A stretch of 64,000 nucleotides of DNA from Gammaproteobacteria bacterium (GCA_022601255.1 JAHZIV010000038.1:16959-80958), one strand, 5' to 3'. Positions 27,490-44,991 are shown, counted from the first letter of the stretch. Made by a program: numbers and translations. The notes: generated by a model from the sequence alone, not told the origin.

Positions 27490-28935
27490 ATGGCACGATC
27501 AGAGCGAAGAGCAGCAGAAAGAAAGCCTTTAGTAACACGACCGCCAAAGATTCTGCACGTCAGAGATATGGGTCAACAGGCACCGATTGGCGTTCAACCG
27601 GTTACAAGTAACTGGCACTCTTTTTGTTGGTTGGCAGCATGTTGTTGTTGGTGCCCACCATCTGTCTTTAAAAACTGGCCTACAGAACGCATACGCGCTA
27701 TCTTTTGCCTGACCTTGAAACAAGTCGAGATAGACTTGGCTGCGACTAGAGAAAATGAAGCCTCACTAACACGCATGGGCCTTAGCCCCGAACGATACAA
27801 TAAAACCATCACTGCTGGACAACCCGCCGCAACACTTGCGGGGCGACCTCCTTTCACGGTAACGTACGGCGGTCATGCCACAATAGAACTAAATATTGGT
27901 GGGCATATTATATTAATAGACCCTACCATTGGAAATGTTTCCGATTACGAGCGCAAAATACCCGAATACTTTACTGCTGAAAAAACAGCTGCCGTAGCAC
28001 CTAACACCAAAGTAGTTCTTGCCTCACACAACCATGGTGATCATAATAATTATTTAGAGGACCCCACTATCAGAGCACAACAACCCACCATCATCGTGGG
28101 TGCTCAATCTCGGTGGCCTAAAGAATGGGGGTATCGAGACGTTCACACATTAAAATGGGGCCAGAAAAAACGCTTTGAAATAGCCGAAGGAGTCATACTA
28201 TCCGTTACAGGCATTCCGGCACAACACTCTTCTGCGCGCAAAGGCTATGGCTGTGGTGGCTGCATACCAACAGCCGTCATCAACTTGGAGCTGTGGCTAG
28301 GATTTTTTGTAGAAATTGAATATAACGGGCAAAAATACAATATCTACTACACCGGTGATACTGGAGAAGGAAAATATTTTCAAAATGCCGATGGCGAAAC
28401 AGTTACATTAAAAGATTATGTCGTCGAGTTTGCAAAACAATGCGGTGGTATTGATTTTATCTTTGCTCAGGTCGGTCCGCACGAACCCTTCGGCGATCAT
28501 GGTGAATCGCCCATGCATATGGGGCCAGAAGAAATTGTGCGATTTTCATCGGAAATTATCGCTGCTATGGATGAGGCTGGAGAAAGAAAGTCCTATATTA
28601 TCCCCGTACATCATTCGGCGTTCGCATATGAAAAACCACGCGGATACTACCTGCTGCAATTTTTATTGGAAGCAGCAAAACAAAGGTTAGACAGGGTAAT
28701 ACCGTTAGCTTTCAAGGGAACAATTGATCTTGGTGAAATTCTAGCGATGTCGCCAGATAAAATAAAGGTGGCGTTTGATCACACAGTAGCAAGCTTGCAT
28801 CAACCTTATGGTATTTTTAGCAGACCTGATGTGCGAAACTTTTATGACATACCAGGAGATACTTCTACAATAAAATTATGCCGAACACCGTCTGTTGAAA
28901 ACCTTGGTCATCAGCTTGCTGACTTTACGCGATAA
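27490..28935 (+). CDS. Metallo-beta-lactamase-fold hydrolase with an unusual N-terminal extension
   Basis: HxHxDH motif SHNHGDH. N-terminal basic stretch followed by the Cys/Trp cluster FCWLAACCCWCPP (nt 27625-27654). Confidence 0.65.
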   Translation: MARSERRAAERKPLVTRPPKILHVRDMGQQAPIGVQPVTSNWHSFCWLAACCCWCPPSVFKNWPTERIRAIFCLTLKQVEIDLAATRENEASLTRMGLSPERYNKTITAGQPAATLAGRPPFTVTYGGHATIELNIGGHIILIDPTIGNVSDYERKIPEYFTAEKTAAVAPNTKVVLASHNHGDHNNYLEDPTIRAQQPTIIVGAQSRWPKEWGYRDVHTLKWGQKKRFEIAEGVILSVTGIPAQHSSARKGYGCGGCIPTAVINLELWLGFFVEIEYNGQKYNIYYTGDTGEGKYFQNADGETVTLKDYVVEFAKQCGGIDFIFAQVGPHEPFGDHGESPMHMGPEEIVRFSSEIIAAMDEAGERKSYIIPVHHSAFAYEKPRGYYLLQFLLEAAKQRLDRVIPLAFKGTIDLGEILAMSPDKIKVAFDHTVASLHQPYGIFSRPDVRNFYDIPGDTSTIKLCRTPSVENLGHQLADFTR

Positions 28936-30067
28936 AATCTAATATGCTTTTTAAAAACACATGAATGGGTATGATTTGAATATCATGATCTGTATATACG
29001 TCTTGGCCTCCATATAGCATAAAACATTTTGCTACAGGGTAATCTTTCTTAAAAAGCAACAAACCTTTTAAATCATTTTTATTAATCTTTTCACGTCGCT
29101 TAATTTCAAAGGCCAGGAGACCTTTTTCTCCATATAAAATAAAGTCAACCTCAACTTGATTCAACGTCCTCCAATAAAAAAACTGGTACCCCAATTCAAA
29201 GTAATCATTGATTGCCTTAACTTCTTGAAGAAATAACGTTTCGAGTGCAGGGCCGTCTATATCAGCATTACTATCAAGCGGGCCTTGTGGACGTATCGTA
29301 CGATAAACGCCTACATCAAAATAATAAAATTTCGAATGTGAAATTAATTTTCGTTTTGCCTTCTTCGAGAAAACCGGTAGCCGACAACCAATTAATAAGT
29401 CTTCAATAATATCAAAATAATTTGTAACCGTATGGCGGTTACTACTAATTTCACGACTTATTTCAGTATAATTGATTACTTCTCCCTGTGAAAAACTAGC
29501 CGCCTCAAGAAAATGATTAAACTGAGCAATATTGCGTACCAAACTTTCTTCCAAGACCTCCTCTCGAAGATACGTCTTTATATAGGATTGCAAATACTTA
29601 ACCGGCGTTGTCGATGTGTATGCAGTGGGCAGCTCACCAATCATTAAAGATTTTTTAAGATTAAATTCATCGCCAAGCTCCATTGCTGTCAATGGATGCA
29701 TATTAAAAATTAAAGCACGCCCTGCTAATAAATTAGTGCCCTTACGTTTAAGTTTACGTGCACTGGAACCTGTCAGAATAAATTTTAATTTTCTGCTTTC
29801 AATCAACCGATGAACTTCATTCAACAGTTCAGGGATTTTTTGAATCTCGTCGATGATAACCCAGTCTTTGTAATCAGAAGGAATTAATGTCTCCAGCCTG
29901 CTTGGACGAGCAAGCAACATACGATAACTGTCATCATGTAGTAAATCAAAGTACAGTGCTTCAGCAAAATGTGCTTTTAACCACGAGGTCTTACCCGTAC
30001 CCCTCGGGCCAAAAATGAAAACACTTTGCTGCAAATCTTCTGGGAGCTTGAATAATCGTTTAAACAT
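28925..30067 (-). CDS. AAA-type ATPase (COG1373 / DUF4143-like)
   Basis: Walker A FGPRGTGKTS and Walker B-like VIIDEIQ. 380 aa. Confidence 0.75.
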   Translation of the reverse strand: MFKRLFKLPEDLQQSVFIFGPRGTGKTSWLKAHFAEALYFDLLHDDSYRMLLARPSRLETLIPSDYKDWVIIDEIQKIPELLNEVHRLIESRKLKFILTGSSARKLKRKGTNLLAGRALIFNMHPLTAMELGDEFNLKKSLMIGELPTAYTSTTPVKYLQSYIKTYLREEVLEESLVRNIAQFNHFLEAASFSQGEVINYTEISREISSNRHTVTNYFDIIEDLLIGCRLPVFSKKAKRKLISHSKFYYFDVGVYRTIRPQGPLDSNADIDGPALETLFLQEVKAINDYFELGYQFFYWRTLNQVEVDFILYGEKGLLAFEIKRREKINKNDLKGLLLFKKDYPVAKCFMLYGGQDVYTDHDIQIIPIHVFLKSILDFIA

Positions 30068-31725: not shown

Positions 31726-32178
31726 ATGAGCGTTAACTATAAACCAGAAGCCTATCATACTGTCACACCTTATGTGGTGGTAGAAGATCCTGCAAAATTA
31801 ATTGCTTTTTTAGAAGCAACTTTTAATGCAGTTGTAACCGAATGTATTCGCAGTAAAGAAGGAGCAGTTAAACATGCTGAATTGAAAATCGGCGACTCCA
31901 TCGTGATGACAGGCGCTAACCATGAAGACAAGCCAAGTGCTGCGATGTTGTATCTTTACGTGGAAGACACCGATGCTACCTATCAAAAAGCCTTGACTGC
32001 TGGTGCTAAATCCTTAATGGAACCTGCCGACCAATTTTACGGTGATCGCAATGCGGGTGTTGAGGATATGTTTGGCAATCGGTGGTGGATTGCCACTCAC
32101 GTGGAAGACGTTGCACCAGAAGAGTTAGAAAAACGTTCGCAAGCGTTTCATGAGTCGCAAGGCAATTCGTCTCTATGA
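31726..32178 (+). CDS. VOC/glyoxalase-family (PhnB-like) protein
   Basis: PYVVVEDPAKLIAFL...HAELKIGDS...FGNRWWI pattern. Confidence 0.7.
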   Translation: MSVNYKPEAYHTVTPYVVVEDPAKLIAFLEATFNAVVTECIRSKEGAVKHAELKIGDSIVMTGANHEDKPSAAMLYLYVEDTDATYQKALTAGAKSLMEPADQFYGDRNAGVEDMFGNRWWIATHVEDVAPEELEKRSQAFHESQGNSSL

Positions 32179-33374
32179 AAAGCACATTACAAAAACTCAA
32201 CTTCACTGATATAAACCTTGATACTTTTCTACGAGATTACTGGCAAAAAAAACCAGTCGTACTAAAACAGGCAATGTCTGACTTTGCGAGCCCACTCAGC
32301 GCTGAAGAATTAGCAGGCCTATCACTCGAGCCTGAGGTTGAAAGCCGTATTGTTGTCGAACAACCAAATCAAACGCCTCCATGGATCATTCGAAAGGGCC
32401 CTTTTACTGATGATGAATATACATCATTACCAAAAACACATTGGACCCTACTGGTACAAGGTGTTGATCGACTACTCCCTGAAATACAAAATTTACTCGA
32501 CTACTTTGACTTCATTCCTCAATGGCGCGTCGACGACGTGATGATCAGCTATGCGGCGTTGCATGGTAGTGTTGGGCCACATTACGATAACTATGATGTG
32601 TTTCTATTGCAAGCTCAAGGGCAACGTAAATGGATGCTAACCACACAAAATTGTCATGACAAAAATATCGTGAGCGATGTTGATTTACGTATTATGAATC
32701 AATTTATTATTGAACAAGAATATGTTTTAGAGCCCGGAGACATTCTTTATTTACCACCACATGTGGGTCATCATGGTGTATCGTTATCTGATGACTGCAT
32801 GACTTATTCTTTTGGTTATCGTAGCTATCCTGGATTAGAGGTCATAAACAATTTTTGTGATTATCTAAACGAATTAGATTCATTTAAATCTTTATATAAA
32901 GATACAGACTGGCGTACAATTAATCATACCTCTGAATTACCAGAAGCTGCTTGGAAAAATGCTAAGGCATTAATCCATACTGCACTAGATGATGATAACA
33001 TTTTAAAAAACTGGTTTGGTCAATTTGCTACGAATCTAGACCAAGAAGCTGAAATGCAATTGCCTTCGATTCTTGATAATGTTAGTGAGGATGATTTTGC
33101 CGCTCTGCTCTCTTCAAATAAAACGTTGCACCGCCACCCAATTTGTAAAATGGCTTATCAACTTGATGCTAATCAATCTGCCTATAAGCTTTATATTAAT
33201 GGTGTTACTTGGAAAATTGATGGCGTAACACTTGATCTTATTGAAATGGTTGCCAATTATCGCACTATAGAATGTCAGCACTTGAATGATTTCATATCAT
33301 TAAGTGTAAATATGGGATTCTTGTTTGAGTTGTGGCAATTACAATGGTTACAGTTTTCAGATGAAATACTTTAA
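32175..33374 (+). CDS. roxA: JmjC/cupin ribosomal protein hydroxylase (RoxA/YcfD-like)
   Basis: N-terminus FLRDYWQKKPVVLKQA. Fe-binding HYDNYD...PPHVGHHGV pattern. Confidence 0.7.
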   Translation: MKSTLQKLNFTDINLDTFLRDYWQKKPVVLKQAMSDFASPLSAEELAGLSLEPEVESRIVVEQPNQTPPWIIRKGPFTDDEYTSLPKTHWTLLVQGVDRLLPEIQNLLDYFDFIPQWRVDDVMISYAALHGSVGPHYDNYDVFLLQAQGQRKWMLTTQNCHDKNIVSDVDLRIMNQFIIEQEYVLEPGDILYLPPHVGHHGVSLSDDCMTYSFGYRSYPGLEVINNFCDYLNELDSFKSLYKDTDWRTINHTSELPEAAWKNAKALIHTALDDDNILKNWFGQFATNLDQEAEMQLPSILDNVSEDDFAALLSSNKTLHRHPICKMAYQLDANQSAYKLYINGVTWKIDGVTLDLIEMVANYRTIECQHLNDFISLSVNMGFLFELWQLQWLQFSDEIL

Positions 33375-34132
33375 CCCATATTTTTATTTAACAAATGATC
33401 CACCAACGCCGACGGCAATGCCATCGACAAACGACTGAGCCAAGCAAGCGGTCCCGGGAAGCTAATCACAGGCTTATCTTTTGCAAGACCTCTTGCAATA
33501 ATAACAGCCGCTTTCTCTGCTGAAACCATCATCGGTTTGGGTGTCGATAATTTATCGCTCATGGCTGTTTTAACAAAACCGGGGCAAATAACATTAACTT
33601 TGATGCCATCGGGTTTTAACCAAGCGCGTAATGCTTCGCCATAAGATTTAATCGCAGCCTTACTCGCACAGTAAGCCGGTGATTGTGGCAAGCCACGATA
33701 GGCTGCCAATGAACTCACTATCACAATTTGCCCACGACGGCGCTCACGCATACTCGTAACAATCGGCGTCACCGTATTGATAACACCATTGACATTGGTG
33801 TCTATCACCGCTCTTATCGTGTCTATTGTTTCGGGCCCTCTATTTGCAGCAATAAAAGAGGACACACCCGCGTTTGCTATTAATAAATCAATCGGGTGCT
33901 CAGTATCAATTGTCTTTATCCAATCTGAAAAATCCGGGTGATCTGTCACATCTGCTTGCTTTTGAATGACCACAGCACCCTTGCGTTCACAACGCTGCGC
34001 GACTGTGTTGAGTTTTTCTGGGTTGCGCCCTGTGATAATAATGCATGTATTCGCAGCTGCATAATACTCTGCTAATGCAGATCCGATGCCTCCCGTTGCA
34101 CCGGTAATTAAAATCGTTTTCTCAGCAGCCAT
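33371..34132 (-). CDS. Short-chain dehydrogenase/reductase (classical SDR); last gene of the lipid operon
   Basis: TGATGGIGSA, NAG and YCASK catalytic motifs. Starts 2 nt after the GNAT stop. Confidence 0.85.
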   Translation of the reverse strand: MAAEKTILITGATGGIGSALAEYYAAANTCIIITGRNPEKLNTVAQRCERKGAVVIQKQADVTDHPDFSDWIKTIDTEHPIDLLIANAGVSSFIAANRGPETIDTIRAVIDTNVNGVINTVTPIVTSMRERRRGQIVIVSSLAAYRGLPQSPAYCASKAAIKSYGEALRAWLKPDGIKVNVICPGFVKTAMSDKLSTPKPMMVSAEKAAVIIARGLAKDKPVISFPGPLAWLSRLSMALPSALVDHLLNKNMG

Positions 34133-34134
34133 GG

Positions 34135-34728
34135 CTACTGGATCTCGGGGCTTTTCATCAGTAACATGCCATCATCGTGAGGCAATAATTCATGGCGCTT
34201 AACCTCTACATTCCGATCAACCTGAAAGCCTGCAAATTTCAGCGCCGTCACAACCGGTGTATTATCGGCCCAAACATGTGCGCTAAGGTATTTAAGATTT
34301 TTTTCTTTAGCGATACCTTCTAACAAATGACACATATCCAATGCGGCCGGTGTATTACGATACTCTGGCAATACGGCCAACGTGTGAATATACAAGCTAT
34401 CATCAATGCGTGTTTCGTAGAAATTCTTCATGTGGTCCAAGCGTTCTTGCGGAATAAAGGCACGCATGATTTCCGGCACCAGATGCTGACTGGCAGGATA
34501 ATAATTCGTTGCACCAATGATCTTATCATTTTCTACTGCTAATAATGTGTTGTTATAACACATTGGGTTATCTTCATCCAAAATAGCAAGCTTTAACATT
34601 TCTTCTGTAGTGGTATCAGGGAACAGGTCATTTAACATGAAATCACTGATGCCTCCCGCCGTCATCACTGTTAATTCAGCGATAATATCAGCGTCATCAG
34701 CATTAGCTTGACGGTAAGTGATACTCAT
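34135..34728 (-). CDS. GNAT-family N-acyltransferase
   Basis: GNAT core LYIHTLAVLPEYRNTPAALDM. GAGGAG SD. 10 nt after the upstream stop. Confidence 0.75.
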   Translation of the reverse strand: MSITYRQANADDADIIAELTVMTAGGISDFMLNDLFPDTTTEEMLKLAILDEDNPMCYNNTLLAVENDKIIGATNYYPASQHLVPEIMRAFIPQERLDHMKNFYETRIDDSLYIHTLAVLPEYRNTPAALDMCHLLEGIAKEKNLKYLSAHVWADNTPVVTALKFAGFQVDRNVEVKRHELLPHDDGMLLMKSPEIQ

Positions 34729-34738
34729 AGTGCACTCC

Positions 34739-36310
34739 TCAGGAATATTGTGGTTTTAATTCATCATAACAAGCTTTTAGGCACTTAGCCGTTTTCTCTA
34801 TTTGCTCTCGCGTATGCACCGAACACATAAAGAAGCGTAAACGCGCCTTGTTTTCAGATACGGCAGGATAAATTATCGGTTGCACGTTAATGCCATTTTC
34901 AAATAGTTTATTTGCTAACGAAATTGTGAAAATAGACCTGCCAATCACCACAGGAATAACTGCGTGACCTTCGCAAGTACTCAGATCAAACCCTTCGGCA
35001 CGCAGCAAGTCAAACATCAATCGACTGTTGTCTTGCAATTGCTGTACTCGTTCAGGTTCAGCCAACATAAGCTCTAACGCTGCCAAGCTTGCTGCTGCTA
35101 ATGGTGGCGACAACCCAACAGAATACAAAAATCCGGGAGCGGTATAACGTAAATATTCGATTAATTTGTGGCTACCTGCAATATAACCACCACAACTGGA
35201 TAATGTTTTACTTAACGTTCCCATCCAAATATCAACGTCTCGTGTATCAACACCCAAATGCTCTGCAATACCCTGACCGGTCTTACCTAAAACACCGGTT
35301 GCATGTGCTTCATCTACCATCAAGAATGCGCGATAATGTTTTTTCAGGTCTACCATTTGTTGTAATGGTGGTGTATCACCCTCCATACTATAAAGACCTT
35401 CTGTCAGAATCAATGTGCGTTTATAATCCATGCGATTCTGTTCTAGCAATCGCTCTAAGTCCTTCATGTCATTATGCTTAAAAGAAAGGCTGCGCGCACC
35501 TGACAGCTTTGCGCCTTGCAATGCACTGTTATGACATAACTCATCATAAACAATTAAATCGTTACTATCGAACAGATGGCCAATGGTAGTGACATTAGTT
35601 GCATGCCCGCTCACAAATACCAGCGCATCATCTACTTGATAAAACTCCGCCAACTTTGTTTCTAAATCGCGTTGTATTGGGCGCTCACCCGACACAATAC
35701 GACTGGATGATGCTGATGTACCATATTGATCAATGGCTTTTTTGGCGGCATCTGAAACTTTCTGTTGCCCGCATAAATCTAAGTAGTTATAGCAAGCAAA
35801 ATTAATATACTGCTTACCGTCTACTTGTGTCGTGGCCGATGCCACACCCTCGTGTGGACGAAAATAAGGCGTTGCAATGCTAGCACGCTCCATCACCTTC
35901 TTCTGCATATCCACTTGGTAATAAGCGGGTAGCTTTTCAATATTGTAATGGCTCTCTGAAAGTTTTTTGGTATCGATTTCTGCCATCGCTGGCTTTGCTG
36001 GTTGCTCAACTTCTGTTTGTTGCATCGTCTCAAACAATTCGTCAGCCAAATCGTTGGCTGTGGTTTCTTCCGTTAATGACGATACAGGCAATTCAATGCC
36101 AATTTTATCTTTAATGAAAAAATTTAATTCGACAATAGCAATTGAGTTTAAGCCAATATCGATCAGTGGCGTATTGTTTTCTATACGATCTATTGGCAAT
36201 CGGCTTAATGCACTGATCTTGCTTTTTAATAAATCGAGAATGGCAGCTGCCGAATCAAAAGACACGGTGCTCGACTGCGTCATAGCCGGCTCTGCTGTTT
36301 TTGTTGTCAT
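34739..36310 (-). CDS. Acyl-carrier-protein domain fused to a PLP-dependent alpha-oxoamine synthase (Spt/BioF/Kbl/CqsA family)
   Basis: Carrier motif LIDIGLNSIAIVEL (Ser56). AOS core YNYL...SSRIVSG...GHATN...DEAHATG...GTLSKTL (PLP lysine). Confidence 0.85.
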   Translation of the reverse strand: MTTKTAEPAMTQSSTVSFDSAAAILDLLKSKISALSRLPIDRIENNTPLIDIGLNSIAIVELNFFIKDKIGIELPVSSLTEETTANDLADELFETMQQTEVEQPAKPAMAEIDTKKLSESHYNIEKLPAYYQVDMQKKVMERASIATPYFRPHEGVASATTQVDGKQYINFACYNYLDLCGQQKVSDAAKKAIDQYGTSASSSRIVSGERPIQRDLETKLAEFYQVDDALVFVSGHATNVTTIGHLFDSNDLIVYDELCHNSALQGAKLSGARSLSFKHNDMKDLERLLEQNRMDYKRTLILTEGLYSMEGDTPPLQQMVDLKKHYRAFLMVDEAHATGVLGKTGQGIAEHLGVDTRDVDIWMGTLSKTLSSCGGYIAGSHKLIEYLRYTAPGFLYSVGLSPPLAAASLAALELMLAEPERVQQLQDNSRLMFDLLRAEGFDLSTCEGHAVIPVVIGRSIFTISLANKLFENGINVQPIIYPAVSENKARLRFFMCSVHTREQIEKTAKCLKACYDELKPQYS

Positions 36311-38109
36311 GAATATACCTCTGCTGGTTCAAATACATACGCATCTTTATACATGGATTTAAGTTGATCTTTTTTATACTCGCGTTGGCATAATTTTCTT
36401 TGTAACTTTCCACTGGTGGTTTTAGGAAGCCGCCCTCTTGGCAACAACACGACCGCTGCAACCGTTAGCTGATGTCCACGCAATATCGCCGCTTGGATAT
36501 CTTGCGCAACACGTTCAAATATTTTTTCATCCGTGCTGCGTTGCAACTCAGTCACCACAACCAACTCTTCCTGTTGCTCCATCTCATGTGAAAAGGCAAT
36601 GGCGTTACACCCCTGTAAAGCAGCATCTGCCTGCAATGCACTCTCCTCAATATCTTGCGGATAGTGATTTTCGCCATTGATAATGATGGTTTCCTTGCTG
36701 CGGCCAGCGATATAAAGTTCATCCTGAAATATAAAACCCAGATCACCCGTGCGTAAATAAAAATGATCGGGCTGGTTATTAATGGTGGCTTGACACTCAG
36801 TCTTATTGATATCAGGCTTGTTCCAATAACCCTGACACACAGAAGGCCCTCCGATCCATACCTCACCGGTTTCACCCATAGCACATTCATCCAGCGTCTC
36901 TGGATTTACTATTTTTGTGGTTACTAGCGGCTTGCCGCAGCTTACCATTTCATGCTGCGGTGTATTATTTTGATGGGTAACGGCTTTACCCAATTTAAAC
37001 TGTTCTGCATTAAAGTTTTCTATACGCAAGCCTTCACTGCAGCTGACAAACAATGTTGCCTCTGCCAATCCATACGAACAATGTAATTGTTCTGGCTTAA
37101 ACCCACAGGCTGAAAAGCATTCAACAAAACGTCGCATCGTCGTTGGACGAATCGGTTCGGCGCCACAGATAGCAATATTCCAATGAGATAAATCTAATTG
37201 TGCACGCTGCTCTTCTGTAATGCGCTCACTGCAGAAACGATAAGCGAAATTAGGCGCAGTCGACGAAAAAGCCTTATAATCACTGATCGCCTGCAACCAA
37301 CGAATCGGCTTAAATAGAAAGTTGATCGGCGACATCACAACACCGTGCCCACCAATGTATAACATCAGAAGTATCGTGCCGATCAACCCCATATCATGTG
37401 TCACTGGCAACCACGTTACCGTCACATTATTTTCATCCAGCTTATACGCCTGCTGCATCAACGCCATATTATCTATCAGGCTAGAGTGGCGCACCATCAC
37501 ACCTTTTGGTGAACCGGTCGAACCTGACGTGTATTGTAAAAACATCACATCGTTTGCATTAATGTTCGACATAAACGGTACTGTATATTCGATTGTTTCA
37601 ACCAATTCTGTATTAATTGCATGACAACCTGAATGAATGCCTGTAAAAGAGTCCGCCAGTTTTTGTAAGAACGGCTGCTCTACCATATTAGGCTGTGCTA
37701 ACAAACGTTCAATTTTTTTAGTGACTTTATTTTCTGATAACACCACTGAGGGCTCACAATCATCAAAAATACTGTGTAATTTTTTTATCAGGCTTTTGTT
37801 CGTTGGCGGTAATGTCGGCACCGCAATAGCACCAACATAGGCGCAAGCTAAAAAAGCAGGGATAAATAAATGCTCCGATGCATACAGTAATAACACGCGA
37901 TCACCCGGCTGGGTAATTGGTAACAGTTGCTGCACAATACTCTGCACGATATGATCAAGTTCTCGATAGGTATATTCACAGTAGACTTTGTTATCATCTA
38001 CTAAAAAGGTATACGCTTTTTTGTCTGGGTGCGTTTGCGAACGGCGCTGTAAAATGTCCGCAATATCTGTAAAATTTTTGTTCATTATTTGTTCGTCATG
38101 AGTTTGCAC
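36307..38109 (-). CDS. Fatty acyl-AMP ligase (FAAL-type adenylating enzyme)
   Basis: FLQYTSGSTGSPKGVMV adenylation motif and FAAL-like N-terminus HPDKKAYTF...YRELD. 4-nt overlap with the next gene. Start uncertain (GTG 38109 or ATG 38085). Confidence 0.8.
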   Translation of the reverse strand: MQTHDEQIMNKNFTDIADILQRRSQTHPDKKAYTFLVDDNKVYCEYTYRELDHIVQSIVQQLLPITQPGDRVLLLYASEHLFIPAFLACAYVGAIAVPTLPPTNKSLIKKLHSIFDDCEPSVVLSENKVTKKIERLLAQPNMVEQPFLQKLADSFTGIHSGCHAINTELVETIEYTVPFMSNINANDVMFLQYTSGSTGSPKGVMVRHSSLIDNMALMQQAYKLDENNVTVTWLPVTHDMGLIGTILLMLYIGGHGVVMSPINFLFKPIRWLQAISDYKAFSSTAPNFAYRFCSERITEEQRAQLDLSHWNIAICGAEPIRPTTMRRFVECFSACGFKPEQLHCSYGLAEATLFVSCSEGLRIENFNAEQFKLGKAVTHQNNTPQHEMVSCGKPLVTTKIVNPETLDECAMGETGEVWIGGPSVCQGYWNKPDINKTECQATINNQPDHFYLRTGDLGFIFQDELYIAGRSKETIIINGENHYPQDIEESALQADAALQGCNAIAFSHEMEQQEELVVVTELQRSTDEKIFERVAQDIQAAILRGHQLTVAAVVLLPRGRLPKTTSGKLQRKLCQREYKKDQLKSMYKDAYVFEPAEVYS

Positions 38110-38302
38110 AAACCCTATAGAGTATCAAATGGTGGGAATATATCAAGGACGGATTATTTTGTGTTTTTTACATTATATTCAACAGGTTACGTGACATTTT
38201 CTTTCTGCCTTTGATACATCAGGACATACACTTGCTGAATCTATTGTTGCTGTCTTCCTCACGGATACCTTATAATGTTGTGCTGATAGGATAGAAAACA
38301 CC

Positions 38303-40835: not shown

Positions 40836-41542
40836 AACATTTATTTCGTTTACTGCCTTTGCTTCTGGTTGTCATGACCATTACTTTGGTATTTCACTTT
40901 GGCTTGGACCATTATTTAAGTTTTGAATCAATTAAAACACATAAGGCATTATTACACAGTTGGATTAACCAACATTATTTGTCTTTTGTTTTATTGTTTA
41001 TGTTAACCTATATTGTCAGCGTAGCACTTTCTATTCCAGGCGCTGTTTTCCTAACGCTCACCGCTGGGTTTTTATTTGGCGCTGTATTGGGAACCGTGTA
41101 TGTCGTGATTAGCGCAACCATTGGTGCAACGGGTATCTTTCTCATCGTACAATTTTCCATTGGCAAGTTTCTTGCAGAAAGAAGTGGTAAATGGGTTACT
41201 AAGATGCGGGAAGGATTTCAAGTTAATGCTTTGCAATATTTGCTGTTCTTGCGTTTAGTGCCTTTGTTTCCATTCCCTGTTGTTAATGTTGTCCCCGGTA
41301 TTTTAAACGTCAGAACGTCTACTTATATTATTGGCACTTTTTTTGGCATTATACCCGGCTCCTTTGTCTACTGTTGGCTGGGGCATGGTTTAGGTTATGC
41401 CTTCTCTACAGGAACAGCGCCAAATTTATCAGTTATCTTTGAGCCACAAATATTATGGCCGATTCTTGGGTTAGCTGCACTGTCATTGATCCCCATTGCT
41501 TATAAGCGTTTAAAAAGGAGGTCTCAAACCAAATTAATATAA
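40820..41542 (+). CDS. TVP38/TMEM64 (DedA-related) family membrane protein
   Basis: SNARE-associated-type motif FLRLVPLFPF and multi-TM profile. Confidence 0.75.
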   Translation: MGTSIKHLFRLLPLLLVVMTITLVFHFGLDHYLSFESIKTHKALLHSWINQHYLSFVLLFMLTYIVSVALSIPGAVFLTLTAGFLFGAVLGTVYVVISATIGATGIFLIVQFSIGKFLAERSGKWVTKMREGFQVNALQYLLFLRLVPLFPFPVVNVVPGILNVRTSTYIIGTFFGIIPGSFVYCWLGHGLGYAFSTGTAPNLSVIFEPQILWPILGLAALSLIPIAYKRLKRRSQTKLI

Positions 41543-41869
41543 TTTATCGTTTACAATATCCAAACAAATCTCATCATACTGATCCAAATCTTCATTTTCT
41601 TTTTTGATCATCTGCATTTTGCTAATGGCCTCACAGACTTCCTCTGGAAATTCATTGTTTGAAGCATCATCGCTTGACCAAGAAGCATCGCGCGTTATTT
41701 TGTCAGGCCAACGAGAATATGCCACCCACAAGTCATTTTCGCCTTTATGCAAACAAGAGCCAATGGCTCCTCTGTGTTTGATAAAATAGTCCGTGATAAT
41801 ATCCCAATATTCTTTATAAGCATTTTCTTGATGAGACTTTAATTTAAATCGATAAATAACTGCAAACAT
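41534..41869 (-). CDS. Small ABM-like (antibiotic biosynthesis monooxygenase fold) protein
   Basis: 111 aa. MFAVIYRFKLK...AYSRW pattern. AGGAG SD. Weak assignment. Confidence 0.45.
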   Translation of the reverse strand: MFAVIYRFKLKSHQENAYKEYWDIITDYFIKHRGAIGSCLHKGENDLWVAYSRWPDKITRDASWSSDDASNNEFPEEVCEAISKMQMIKKENEDLDQYDEICLDIVNDKLY

Positions 41870-42065: not shown

Positions 42066-43874
42066 TTATCTTGGTCTCGGCCCAGCCGCATCATCGCCCC
42101 TAGCATAATATTGTGCAACTCTATTGTCTCCAATCAAGTCTCTCACACTAGGCACTTGGGCCCAAATACTATAAAGCAATGCTCTCGCTTCATTTACAAC
42201 TTCGCGCAACGGCAGTGCTGCTGGCTCTACAACTGCAGCTTCTTGCTGAACAACCTCTACTGTAGGAGCACCCTCTGTGAAGTGTATCCTTCTACCATTG
42301 ATGATAACTTCCTCGCCCACTCTAACAACTGTTTCATTCAAAGTCACAGGATGGTCGTAAACAGATACAAACTCACTATTAACTGCTTCAACCGCTCGCC
42401 TAAACTCTATCAACGTTCTTGGATTAACAACTTGCTCCATATGATCATAAAGCTCATTAAGCTGCGATGCATCTTGTAATGCTCGATACGTTCCACCTGT
42501 GGTTGCAGCAAACTGTTGACACAACTCAGGGGAATGGTGTGGCCCCAACCCTAATGTAAACATCTGTGGCGTGACGCGATTTCCCGCTCGCAATTGTCTC
42601 TCTAATGTGCCCTTATGCTCTTCAGTCCTTACATTGTCGCCACCATCTGTGGTCATGATTAAGCTCACATTATGCTGCGCAGGGTCATAACTAGAAAGTG
42701 TTGCATGCCGCAATAACTGAAGCATCGTTCCATAAATCATCGTATTTCCGCCATCACAACCAAGTGCGCTTATATAACTGGATATACCTGCTTCATCAGA
42801 TAGGGAGAATGTAGCCAGCGTAAGGTCTTTCTCTTCAGAAAAAGGCACCAAAATAAGTCGGGCACCGTCACCACATTTTTCTCTTAATTCAGATACCATT
42901 TTTTTAAGTTCAGAAATATATTTGTCTCGCTGATTTTTCATACTACCACTATCATCAATCATCATAATGATTGTTGGAGAAATAGCCTGACTAAAAGGCG
43001 AAGGCAAAAGCACTGGGTTTGCTTCGTCTGTAGTGCCATCCACTAACTGCATCATAACTCCATCTGAGAACACCTGACGTAAATACGCAATCAAATGTTT
43101 TTTATCGATGCCTAAAACGCTCGTATCTCCAGGCTGAGTCTTCTCTAACGTGATTTCAGGCGGGCACAATAATTGGTGCATCAATTGATAGTCACAAAAT
43201 AAGCGTGTCTCTCCACCCTCTTCAATAAAACCAAAACAACGCTTAAATAACTCTGGATCTACCGCATGTATTTTTGTTCCCTCACCCTGCTGTTGAGGTT
43301 CTTGCATAAAAGGCACGTCACTCAGATAAATCTCTCGCAGTTGATGTAGTGGCATTTGAGCAACTCGCTGTGCTGTTGCTTCAATCCAATCAACCCAGAT
43401 AGTTTTTTCTGCTCCCGAAATGGAATTTGTAGAAAGCAACACTGGGCCCTCATTAAACTTTTCTTCCCAAGTGACACTGATGCCAGGCAATAAATCTAAC
43501 CTTTCACCTAAAAATTGCTGCAATCTCGCCAAGCCTTCTCCCTCTCTGGGTGCTGGAGGCATTTCATCTGGATACTGTACACGGTACGTCTGTGCAGCCG
43601 CTCCGTCTTCTTCTGTGTGTAATGTCACCCCTAAAGATGCAAGCAAGTTTTCAGGAGTTTTCAACCCGTTTATTAACCGTTCTTTGGCCGCTTGAAGTTG
43701 GCCATGGTCTTCTGAAATAATAATGATTTCTTTATCAGTCACCTCAAAACGAGCATTGTCAAGTTCGGGTATCAAGTTTAAATGTCTGAGTATGTCGTGC
43801 CAGGCCTGTGAAGATGGCGAAGATTCTGTATCGAGTGGTGCTGGTGCAGCAGCAGCTGCTTCTAATTGTGGCAT
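42066..43874 (-). CDS. Orphan 602-aa protein with a C-terminal-half von Willebrand factor A domain
   Basis: MIDAS DxSxS IIMMIDDSGSM (nt 42942-42956) and downstream MTTDGGDN. The N-terminal ~300 aa are unassigned. Ala/Pro-rich termini. Confidence 0.7.
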   Translation of the reverse strand: MPQLEAAAAAPAPLDTESSPSSQAWHDILRHLNLIPELDNARFEVTDKEIIIISEDHGQLQAAKERLINGLKTPENLLASLGVTLHTEEDGAAAQTYRVQYPDEMPPAPREGEGLARLQQFLGERLDLLPGISVTWEEKFNEGPVLLSTNSISGAEKTIWVDWIEATAQRVAQMPLHQLREIYLSDVPFMQEPQQQGEGTKIHAVDPELFKRCFGFIEEGGETRLFCDYQLMHQLLCPPEITLEKTQPGDTSVLGIDKKHLIAYLRQVFSDGVMMQLVDGTTDEANPVLLPSPFSQAISPTIIMMIDDSGSMKNQRDKYISELKKMVSELREKCGDGARLILVPFSEEKDLTLATFSLSDEAGISSYISALGCDGGNTMIYGTMLQLLRHATLSSYDPAQHNVSLIMTTDGGDNVRTEEHKGTLERQLRAGNRVTPQMFTLGLGPHHSPELCQQFAATTGGTYRALQDASQLNELYDHMEQVVNPRTLIEFRRAVEAVNSEFVSVYDHPVTLNETVVRVGEEVIINGRRIHFTEGAPTVEVVQQEAAVVEPAALPLREVVNEARALLYSIWAQVPSVRDLIGDNRVAQYYARGDDAAGPRPR

Positions 43875-44012: not shown

Positions 44013-44492
44013 ATGACAGCTTCAAGACTCACTGAGAAGCAAAAGTTTATTTTAGGCGCCACGATGGTATTGTGTGTGTTTGCCTGTGCTTGTAGTGCTA
44101 ACGATAAAGTGGTTATTGCAATAGACCCAAAACGTTGCAGAGAACTTGTTAGGAATTATATTGAGGGGACACCTTCCGCACTTCCCCTTCCTTCTGACTC
44201 GACTGGAATTAATGGTGACTGGTACCGATATTGTAAGCGCATTCCAGTCTCTCTCTATTTATCCAAGCGAGAAGAATGTCATGAAGACTGGGGGCAAGGC
44301 TGGCTCTGGCAACAACTGAAAAACCTCTGGGATCTTTTCAATTGTCAAAACTCTCATTACTCTGACAATCAAGTGGATGCTTCACACATCAGCACTTCTT
44401 TATTCGCATCGGTTTGTAACATCGTACCTGAATGGAAAGACATCGCTGAACATGTTGCGCAATTCAATGTAAAGTGTGCACCTTATCGTTAA
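44013..44492 (+). CDS. Hypothetical exported protein or lipoprotein
   Basis: Hydrophobic N-terminus LGATMVLCVFACACSAN (lipobox-like). Cys- and Trp-rich mature part. Confidence 0.45.
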   Translation: MTASRLTEKQKFILGATMVLCVFACACSANDKVVIAIDPKRCRELVRNYIEGTPSALPLPSDSTGINGDWYRYCKRIPVSLYLSKREECHEDWGQGWLWQQLKNLWDLFNCQNSHYSDNQVDASHISTSLFASVCNIVPEWKDIAEHVAQFNVKCAPYR

Positions 44493-44529
44493 GGCAACAA
44501 AGCCTGCCTGGCAATTTTATTTATGACCA

Positions 44530-44991
44530 TCATCTTGAGAATGATTTAAATGCTTTTAATTTTGACCAGTTTGGGTATGTTAGTTCCCACAAACGATAAA
44601 TTCTATCTCCGCGATATTGGGCAATTAAAATAACTTCTATTTTTGTAGCTGCTTGCCTAGGCTCTTTTGTTGTAATAAATAATCTGGCAGCTACTTTATT
44701 ACCCTCTTGCACTAAAGTATTTTTATCAAATTTGAAACTATATTGAATAGGCGTTTTATAGATTTTTTTATGGCCCTGATAGTACTCCTGGTAATTCATT
44801 GTCTCGCCATTAGAATATAATTTGAATGTAGGATCATAATACTTCGACATCAATGAGATATTTTTCTCAACCACCATCTTATTAAACATGTTTTTTAAAT
44901 CTTGAATATGATTACTAGCCATTGCAATATTCATTGAACAAAAACAACCGAGTGTTAATATTATTTTAATAAGCCTTTTCATTAGGATCAC
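44530..44991 (-). CDS. Hypothetical secreted protein (NTF2/SnoaL-like guess)
   Basis: Signal peptide ending IAMA. 4-nt overlap with the glmU stop. Fold assignment is tentative. Confidence 0.45.

Follow-up and report, generated by a model that had tools for sequence, protein, structure and literature searches.

Genes of the cassette and their predicted products

The analysed stretch of DNA, a 64-kb segment from an uncultured gammaproteobacterium (GCA_022601255.1, JAHZIV010000038.1; here called the window), carries on its minus strand a compact cassette of four genes. These are predicted to encode the enzyme fatty acyl-AMP ligase (FAAL; 36307-38109, 600 amino acids (aa) from a GTG start), an acyl carrier protein (ACP) fused to an alpha-oxoamine synthase (AOS; 34739-36310, 523 aa), a GCN5-related N-acetyltransferase (GNAT; 34135-34728, 197 aa) and a short-chain dehydrogenase/reductase (SDR; 33371-34132, 253 aa). 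The encoded proteins are identical to MCH9643836-39 of an uncultured Gammaproteobacteria bacterium metagenome-assembled genome (MAG), and the fusion protein is 100% identical to MCH9745075.1. The FAAL and AOS genes share an ATGA stop/start overlap (...TTC ATGA CAA), a 10-nt gap containing GGAG lies between the AOS and GNAT genes (TGA GGAGTGCACT ATG), and the GNAT and SDR genes are 2 nt apart (TAG CC ATG). The junction sequences indicate that the four genes are translationally coupled.

The first protein is assigned as a fatty acyl-AMP ligase by its fold and by its partner carrier domain, which is encoded in the overlapping next gene and which it is predicted to load. It matches the Pfam AMP-binding family (1.4e-64), has an AMP-dom_DIP2-like C-terminal domain, and three FAAL subfamily models are among its top NCBIfam matches. 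The best solved structures are 7r7e-g (418 bits), aligned over residues 13-578 with only short gaps, and the Legionella pneumophila FAAL 3kxw (393 bits), followed by FadD32 and FadD23. Two recent surveys of FAALs mention neither a FAAL-to-ACP-AOS architecture nor any AOS or pyridoxal phosphate (PLP)-dependent partner.

In the second protein, the carrier (PP-binding) domain occupies residues ~27-91 (36038-36232, minus strand; PF00550, 2.5e-8), and Ser56, in the sequence DIGLNS (codon 36143-36145), is the predicted phosphopantetheine attachment site. Residues ~143-519 (34754-35884, minus strand; Aminotran_1_2, 7.7e-50) form the PLP-dependent AOS domain. Its key residues are His260 (CHNS), Asp333 and His336 (DEAH), Lys368 (GTLSK) and the Arg of ARLRF; in an alignment, the Sphingobacterium serine palmitoyltransferase (SPT) has matching residues for the His that stacks on PLP, for the Asp/His pair, for the Lys of the Schiff base and for the C-terminal Arg.

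The AOS domain reached no curated NCBIfam cut-off. It scored 353 against the BioF model TIGR00858 (cut-off 426), 335, 291 and 225 against the CFB, beta and alpha Spt models (cut-offs 640, 500 and 670), 328 against Kbl NF005394 (cut-off 460) and 180 against CqsA/LqsA NF005526 (cut-off 428). Among solved structures the highest scores were those of Sphingobacterium SPT (236 bits), Thermus AOS (218), Kbl (214) and human SPTLC2 (214), ahead of cysteate acyltransferases (170-177), Escherichia coli BioF (151), SphA (9pep; 96) and CqsA (87). A BioF or Kbl identity was rejected because of the sub-cut-off scores and because no biotin or threonine-degradation genes (bio, tdh) occur in the cassette flanks. 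Much closer are hundreds of ~450-aa proteins from beta- and gammaproteobacteria and beyond, which match the domain at 50-59% identity and 510-530 bits. They include a Paraburkholderia orthologue of WcbT, assigned by synteny (58% identity); the Sinorhizobium meliloti protein in the RkpG position is 48% identical. A signature of H-N-S, SGHATN and the Cys in SK...CGG is common to 85 of 85 AOS domains of this family, that of the window included, whereas the SPT and Thermus AOS structures have H-A-S after the stacking His. Based on these alignments, we place the window AOS in the RkpG/WcbT-type family, and not with Spt, BioF, Kbl or CqsA. The shared signature argues for a family-specific common substrate preference.

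The GNAT matches Acetyltransf_1 (PF00583) weakly, at 1.1e-6, but over the cut-off; it has no match among the curated NCBIfam models and no meaningful match by sequence in the PDB. Its AlphaFold model (pLDDT 96.5) was matched best by Foldseek to 1u6m (TM-score 0.72-0.75) and next to 4m85 (0.64-0.72). These two and the other fold neighbours, which include PA4794, EctA and dopamine N-acetyltransferase, are small-molecule N-acetyltransferases. The loading GNAT of CurA (GNAT-L) ranks 25 among the fold matches, and no long-chain N-acyltransferase was found near the top of them.

The SDR matches adh_short (6.7e-48, 163 bits) and KR (3.2e-12), with lower scores for Epimerase (31 bits) and NmrA (21 bits). 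It carries the motifs TGATGGIGSA, ITGRN and YCASK, of which ITGRN presumably indicates a use of NADPH, and its nearest solved structures are ketoacyl reductases. It is predicted to be a generic classical cytoplasmic-type SDR ketoreductase.

A preliminary description, made from the sequence of the window, had anticipated much of this. The four coupled minus-strand open reading frames (ORFs) lie where it placed them, the motifs that it quoted are all present in the translations, and the Pfam domains of all four genes agree with its naming of a FAAL-type adenylase, a carrier domain fused to a PLP-dependent AOS with a GTLSK lysine, a GNAT acyltransferase and a classical SDR. For the FAAL, NCBIfam and solved structures point the same way, as does the alignment for the AOS; for the GNAT, fold and Acetyltransf_1 match agree with the family name. 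Its argument against BioF, from the absence of biotin genes, also holds. A minor amendment concerns the FAAL, for which the NCBI gene call begins at an ATG at 38085 (592 aa) and not at the GTG at 38109.

Recurrence of the cassette, and relatives of its genes in capsule loci

The synteny search proposed in the preliminary description recovered the cassette in three further loci. In the first, a TARA sequence (L098), all four genes are present, the AOS is 85% identical to that of the window, and the flanks are unrelated to those of the window. The second, also from TARA (L081), has the four genes with an AOS of 57% identity and flanks that differ from those of L098; here an FA_hydroxylase gene, with an overlap, and then a PMT_2/GT39-like gene come after the cassette, in the vicinity of Stealth, Wzi and glycosyltransferase genes. 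The third, a metagenome contig (L085), encodes a FAAL fragment and a separate ACP, then AOS, GNAT and SDR. Between the window and L098, whose cassettes are 78-91% identical, nonsynonymous difference (pN) is 0.04-0.12 and synonymous difference (pS) is 0.67-0.77 over the four genes, and the GNAT is the most constrained of them, with 91% amino-acid identity. All four genes are real and under strong purifying selection.

We surveyed gene neighbourhoods for the 80 best species-representative AOS loci, 69 of which include at least 1.5 kb upstream and 55 at least 4 kb downstream. Directly upstream of the AOS is a highly reducing type I polyketide synthase (PKS) ending in an ACP in 60 of the 69 loci, and a FAAL in 7. 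Downstream, a KpsS-like Capsule_synth gene is found in 19 of the 55, an SDR gene in 18 (its product 40-50% identical to the window SDR) and a gene for a sulfatase-family membrane protein in 16; a formyltransferase-like gene occurs in 10 of the surveyed loci. The window SDR is 40-55% identical to the SDRs of AOS loci that have KpsS-like and sulfatase-family genes. The carrier domains of L098, L081, L085 and a Planctomycetota fusion, as well as a PKS C-terminal ACP, all keep Gly53 and Ser56 of the window carrier domain.

Gene rows of this kind match the rkp-1 and wcb capsule loci. In S. meliloti Ak57 (L099), a polysaccharide export gene, a gene for a 2,502-aa KS-AT-DH-ER-KR-ACP protein, AOS, SDR, a 512-aa ORF, Capsule_synth and KpsF form a row syntenic with S. 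meliloti rkpU-A-G-H-I-J. The locus of the Paraburkholderia WcbT orthologue (L026) is syntenic with Burkholderia pseudomallei wcbR-wcbS-wcbT-acetyltransferase-manC, and Paraburkholderia haematera has PKS, LpxC-like, AOS, GNAT and ManC genes in the same order as the B. pseudomallei wcb end. According to PMC4275268, the far end of the B. pseudomallei capsular polysaccharide I (CPS-I) locus comprises the acetyltransferase BPSL2786, the AONS-like WcbT, an LpxC-like protein, the PKS WcbR, a sulfatase-type membrane protein, an SDR and KpsS. In the literature the wcb and rkp genes are treated as orthologous (PMC3908369), and a wcbR knock-out reduces CPS-I (PMC3735121). The K-antigen and CPS-I capsules have been known since the 1990s to require the rkp-1 and wcb genes, to which the making of 'a specific lipid carrier or anchor' is ascribed.

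Homologues of the GNAT were collected by an exhaustive hidden Markov model (HMM) search, used instead of a word-indexed protein search that gave 7 relatives; the family comprises ~109 representative clusters at E<=1e-30. GNAT homologues adjoin AOS and SDR genes in L081, L085 and L098 and also in three loci with other gene orders: PKS, AOS, KpsS-like, GNAT, SDR and sulfatase-family (L082); GNAT, SDR, sulfatase-family, KpsS-like and AOS (L088); and AOS, sulfatase-family, SDR and GNAT (L072). A metagenome scan with a 9-sequence GNAT alignment gave 12 loci, of which only L088 and L086 are informative, the latter showing a GNAT/SDR pair in that order. Because GNATs of ~30% identity occur without the partner genes, the association with the module holds for the closer sub-family only. 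The Burkholderia-type GNAT is a remote match to the window GNAT family profile (hhalign probability 96%). From these neighbourhoods, the GNAT-SDR pair is assigned to the RkpG/WcbT-type module.

Judged by homology and gene order, the cassette represents the central AOS, GNAT and SDR part of the rkp-1/wcb 'capsule lipid' module, with a FAAL and a fused ACP apparently taking the place of the giant PKS. In a midpoint-rooted neighbour-joining tree of family members, the AOS of the FAAL-fed cassettes form one clade beside GNAT-bearing PKS loci. Planctomycetota FAAL-ACP-AOS tri-domain fusions of 1,154-1,206 aa form a separate clade; the three domains were identified by Pfam in L073, and L039 has a matching 1,206-aa ORF. 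No GNAT or SDR gene adjoins the fusion in these two loci. On tree and domain order, these fusions appear to be a separate FAAL-fed branch of the RkpG/WcbT-type AOS family.

Some features of the surveyed loci are recorded here in their own right. Five other Planctomycetota loci (L031, L042, L071, L078 and L079) have tblastn matches to FAAL and AOS in the same adjacent layout. Plasmid p3 of Planktothrix agardhii (L100, 3872-11470) encodes a 2,532-aa protein that combines KS-AT-DH-ER-KR-ACP with an RkpG/WcbT-type AOS and is flanked by two GT39 glycosyltransferase genes, a FAAL gene and an alpha/beta hydrolase gene. With the PMT_2/GT39-like gene of L081, this may link the AOS family with GT-C glycosyltransferases. 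In Thiothrix and Thiolinea (L007 and L055, ~12300-12860), a NusG-like (RfaH-type) gene ends a PKS-AOS-KpsS-like locus, which suggests a dedicated antitermination of long PKS-AOS operons. The S. meliloti sequence of L099 (CP090106.1) is labelled as plasmid pSymB, yet it is 3.7 Mb long and has the rkp-1-type row and secD. In the literature the rkp-1-type row is chromosomal, and CP090106.1 is probably a mislabelled chromosome.

Predicted pathway, product and alternatives

We hypothesize that the operon encodes a complete route of its own to an N-acylated long-chain 2-amino-3-hydroxy lipid, starting from a free fatty acid, a reading that we hold to be probable. The FAAL would adenylate a free fatty acid and pass the acyl group to the phosphopantetheine of Ser56 in the AOS-fused ACP, and not to CoA. 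The AOS would then join the tethered acyl chain to an amino acid (serine, alanine or glycine) by a PLP-dependent decarboxylative Claisen condensation, giving a long-chain alpha-amino-ketone. The GNAT would cap the amine, most probably with an acetyl group, which would also prevent dimerization of the amino-ketone, and the SDR would reduce the 3-keto group with NADPH. The expected product is an N-acetyl sphinganine-like or 1-deoxy-sphinganine-like lipid. These steps are plausible by analogy with what each of the four enzyme families is established to do, and acylation before reduction has a precedent in Caulobacter (PMC11087976).

An N-acetylated single-chain amino-alcohol is more likely than a two-chain ceramide, because the fold neighbours of the GNAT are small-molecule acetyltransferases and because the N-acyl role falls, in PKS-fed relatives, to a formyltransferase-like protein or to a GNAT accompanied by an LpxC-like deacetylase. 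The preliminary description had the FAAL load its own ACP and the AOS condense the acyl group with an amino acid, a logic that is sound on the domain identities, with the chemistry predicted. Of the sphinganine- or ceramide-like product that it expected from subsequent N-acylation and keto-reduction, both reactions are plausible; the sphinganine-like form is favoured, and the GNAT fold makes the two-chain ceramide less likely. In the cell, the lipid may stay free, as a membrane component or a signal, or may be a precursor for glycosyl or phosphoglycerol transferases encoded elsewhere.

Several points weigh against this interpretation. The GNAT sub-family of the FAAL-fed cassettes reads R-N-T-P-A-A and not the R-x-x-G-x-G/A CoA motif, and its usual catalytic Tyr is replaced by Lys; since the canonical motif and the Tyr are missing, use of acetyl-CoA is not assured. 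The SDR of S. meliloti, RkpH, is only 27% identical to that of the window, and therefore the SDR link rests on the beta- and gammaproteobacterial wcb-like loci. The neighbour-joining tree that groups the FAAL-fed cassettes has neither an outgroup nor support values. No lipid product of rkp-1, wcb or any RkpG/WcbT-type module was identified in the literature searched. The product of the cassette is predicted from its genes alone, and the amino-acid substrate is not readable from them. Finally, KpsS, KpsC and export genes may lie elsewhere in the genome and would then turn the free lipid into a polysaccharide anchor.

This last point leads to the alternative that survives best, which we consider possible though on balance unlikely: the same chemistry would yield a precursor of a polysaccharide or glycolipid anchor, to which a KpsS/KpsC-type Kdo transferase, a sulfatase-family transferase or a GT39-type glycosyltransferase encoded elsewhere would add phosphoglycerol and/or sugars, so that it could hold a surface polysaccharide in the way suggested for rkp-1/wcb. 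The nearest relatives of the AOS and SDR do lie in capsule loci with KpsS-like and sulfatase-family genes, the CPS-I phenotype of the wcbR knock-out (PMC3735121) fits such a role, and so do the FA_hydroxylase and PMT_2 genes behind the L081 cassette, with Stealth, Wzi and glycosyltransferase genes nearby, and the position of the Planktothrix PKS-ACP-AOS gene between two GT39 genes. However, no KpsS-like, sulfatase-family, formyltransferase-like, GT39, FA-hydroxylase or capsule-export homologue was found across the 64-kb window (by tblastn for the KpsS-like and sulfatase-family proteins), the neighbours of the cassette are housekeeping genes, and the flanks in L098 are unrelated too. The known acceptor of KpsS is, moreover, phosphatidylglycerol according to a 2025 review, which does not mention the rkp/wcb lipid genes (PMC12220298).

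A ceramide-like lipid with two chains seems to us quite improbable. In such a pathway the GNAT would transfer a long acyl chain to the amine, taken from acyl-CoA or from another acyl-ACP that the same FAAL had charged, and would form a dihydroceramide analogue. The order AOS-GNAT-SDR mirrors Spt, bCerS and CerR of Caulobacter, the degenerate CoA-pyrophosphate motif of the GNAT sub-family fits a non-CoA donor such as acyl-ACP, and L081 adds a gene of the FA_hydroxylase family, which includes sphingolipid hydroxylases. Yet the GNAT is a compact single domain of 197 aa whose fold neighbours acetylate small amines, the formyltransferase-like or GNAT plus LpxC-like genes of PKS-fed relatives point to small N-acyl groups, the AOS falls short of the Spt models, and the SDR is of another type than CerR.

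A CAI-1/LAI-1-like alpha-hydroxyketone signal, which the preliminary description had offered as its alternative, or a BioF/Kbl enzyme of primary metabolism is very unlikely: the AOS shares the superfamily with these enzymes, and Legionellales use LqsA, but the CqsA/LqsA model (a score of 180 where 428 is required) and the CqsA structures (87 bits, where the best SPT reaches 236) effectively exclude the signal, the BioF and Kbl scores are likewise below their cut-offs, genes for biotin synthesis or threonine dehydrogenase are absent from the flanks, the enzyme carries its own ACP and has a FAAL to supply it, and it has H-N-S in place of the H-A-S of the aligned SPT and Thermus AOS structures.

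The interest of a FAAL-fed lipid pathway lies partly in its size. The cassette is a PKS-free 4.7-kb form of a module that has been known since the 1990s. The PKS proteins of rkp-1 and wcb (~2,100-2,500 aa) are hard to reconstitute; since the operon is 4.7 kb long and would be fed by free fatty acids, the chemistry of the RkpG/WcbT lineage becomes directly testable.

Genomic setting and comparison with known systems

On one side the cassette is flanked by genes for RsmE, an acid phosphatase, a glyoxalase and a JmjC/RoxA-like protein. On the other side are genes for an amino-acid permease, a cobalamin adenosyltransferase, a DedA/VTT protein, a VWA protein and GlmU, followed by the atp operon, parBA, gidBA and mnmE; no PKS is encoded in the window. 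The divergent amino-acid permease gene and the DedA-family gene were considered as members of the cassette and rejected, neither being conserved in L098 or L081. A gene for an AAA_14/DUF4143 ATPase lies 3.3 kb from the cassette (28925-30067, minus strand), and one is also found in L098 immediately upstream of the FAAL (2507-3856, plus strand), where the remaining flank genes differ.

The divergent intergenic region upstream of the FAAL gene (38110-38302, minus strand) is the putative operon promoter region. It contains one sigma-70-like match, TTGAAT-18-AATAAT at 38182-38153, which is a weak candidate promoter because the region has 9 promoter-like matches, below the 14.3 expected from shuffled sequence. 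At the other end, the SDR stop codon overlaps that of the convergent JmjC/RoxA-like gene (32175-33374) by 4 nt (33371-33374), and no terminator-like structure was found between the two genes. Scans for promoters and terminators gave nothing beyond chance level, and Rfam and tRNA scans of the window gave no match.

Elsewhere in the window, a 3,105-aa ORF (9696-19013, minus strand) has no Pfam family at E<=1e-5; this giant orphan could be an effector or a surface protein. The VWA-domain protein (602 aa; 42066-43874, minus strand) has Ala/Pro-rich termini, and the ORFs beside it (41534-41869 and 44013-44991) have no Pfam matches. Between gidA/mnmG and gidB, a choloylglycine-hydrolase-family gene (linear amide C-N hydrolase; 59830-60819, minus strand) interrupts an otherwise canonical origin-proximal row, ~22 kb from the cassette and unlinked to it. 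This family includes acid-ceramidase-like amidases.

The source organism had been described as an intracellular-type bacterium. The best named matches of AtpD are to Coxiella sp. RIFCSP (89%), Candidatus Paracoxiella (88%), Coxiella burnetii (85%) and Coxiellaceae MAGs, an affinity in keeping with that description, although AtpD is so highly conserved (Halomonas proteins reach 85-86%) that the placement is only suggestive. These matches suggest a Coxiellaceae-like organism. The closest relatives of the cassette come from TARA ocean metagenomes, and the cassette places a predicted sphingoid-like lipid pathway in this uncultured Coxiella-like marine lineage. It is conceivable, if rather unlikely, that a Coxiellaceae-like and probably host-associated bacterium makes N-acetyl-sphinganine-type (C2-dihydroceramide-like) or 1-deoxy-sphingoid lipids from fatty acids that it scavenges, through an AOS lineage (RkpG/WcbT type) separate from Spt. 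If so, this would be a third, independent bacterial route to sphingoid lipids, its product could mimic host ceramide signals, and it would show what the capsule-lipid enzymes of rkp-1 and wcb make.

Among characterized systems, CqsA/LqsA have the AOS enzyme superfamily in common with the cassette, but they are the most distant of the scored AOS groups (87 bits) and have no carrier domain. The pathway to capnine and other sulfonolipids also uses an AOS (cysteate-C-fatty acyltransferase) and then an SDR to reach a sphingoid-like amino-alcohol; its AOS, however, is less similar to that of the window than SPT is (170-177 bits), and it lacks the ACP fusion, the FAAL and the GNAT. In the fungal pathways to fumonisin (Fum1/Fum8/Fum13), sphingofungin (SphB/SphA/SphF/SphE) and myriocin, an AOS joins a long carrier-bound acyl chain to an amino acid, the keto group is then reduced, and the cluster contains an acetyltransferase. 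These routes to sphingolipid mimics are eukaryotic and PKS-fed, and have only distant sequence similarity to the cassette. An ACP fused to an AOS that acts on its carried chain is known from SxtA of saxitoxin synthesis (MT-GNAT-ACP-AONS) and from PigH and RedL of prodiginine synthesis. SxtA also combines a GNAT with the ACP-AOS pair, but the GNAT of SxtA and of CurA lies upstream of the ACP and serves as a loading decarboxylase, whereas that of the window is a separate downstream protein and loading is assigned to the FAAL.

The ceramide pathway of Caulobacter crescentus (Spt, ACP, acyl-ACP synthetase, bCerS and CerR) resembles the cassette in its sequence of steps: an AOS joins acyl-ACP to an amino acid, and the product is N-acylated and then reduced at the keto group (PMC11087976). 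The preliminary description had drawn this parallel, and as homology it fails: the AOS scores below all three Spt models, the GNAT has no NCBIfam match, and the reductase is a classical SDR, from which CerR is set apart by its description as an NDUFA9-like, periplasmic protein (PMC11087976). The cassette is a functional analogue of the Caulobacter pathway, not a member of it.

The closest system is the rkp-1/wcb module. It differs in having a 2,100-2,500-aa KS-AT-DH-(MT)-ER-KR-ACP synthase (RkpA/WcbR) where the window has a FAAL and a fused ACP, and in having KpsS-like (RkpJ/WcbO), sulfatase-family (RkpI/WcbQ) and ABC-type export genes, none of which lies within the 64 kb of the window. The two share the same AOS family with its active-site signature, an acyl chain delivered by an ACP, an adjacent classical SDR (RkpH/WcbP position) and, in the Burkholderia-type and several other loci, a GNAT adjoining the AOS.

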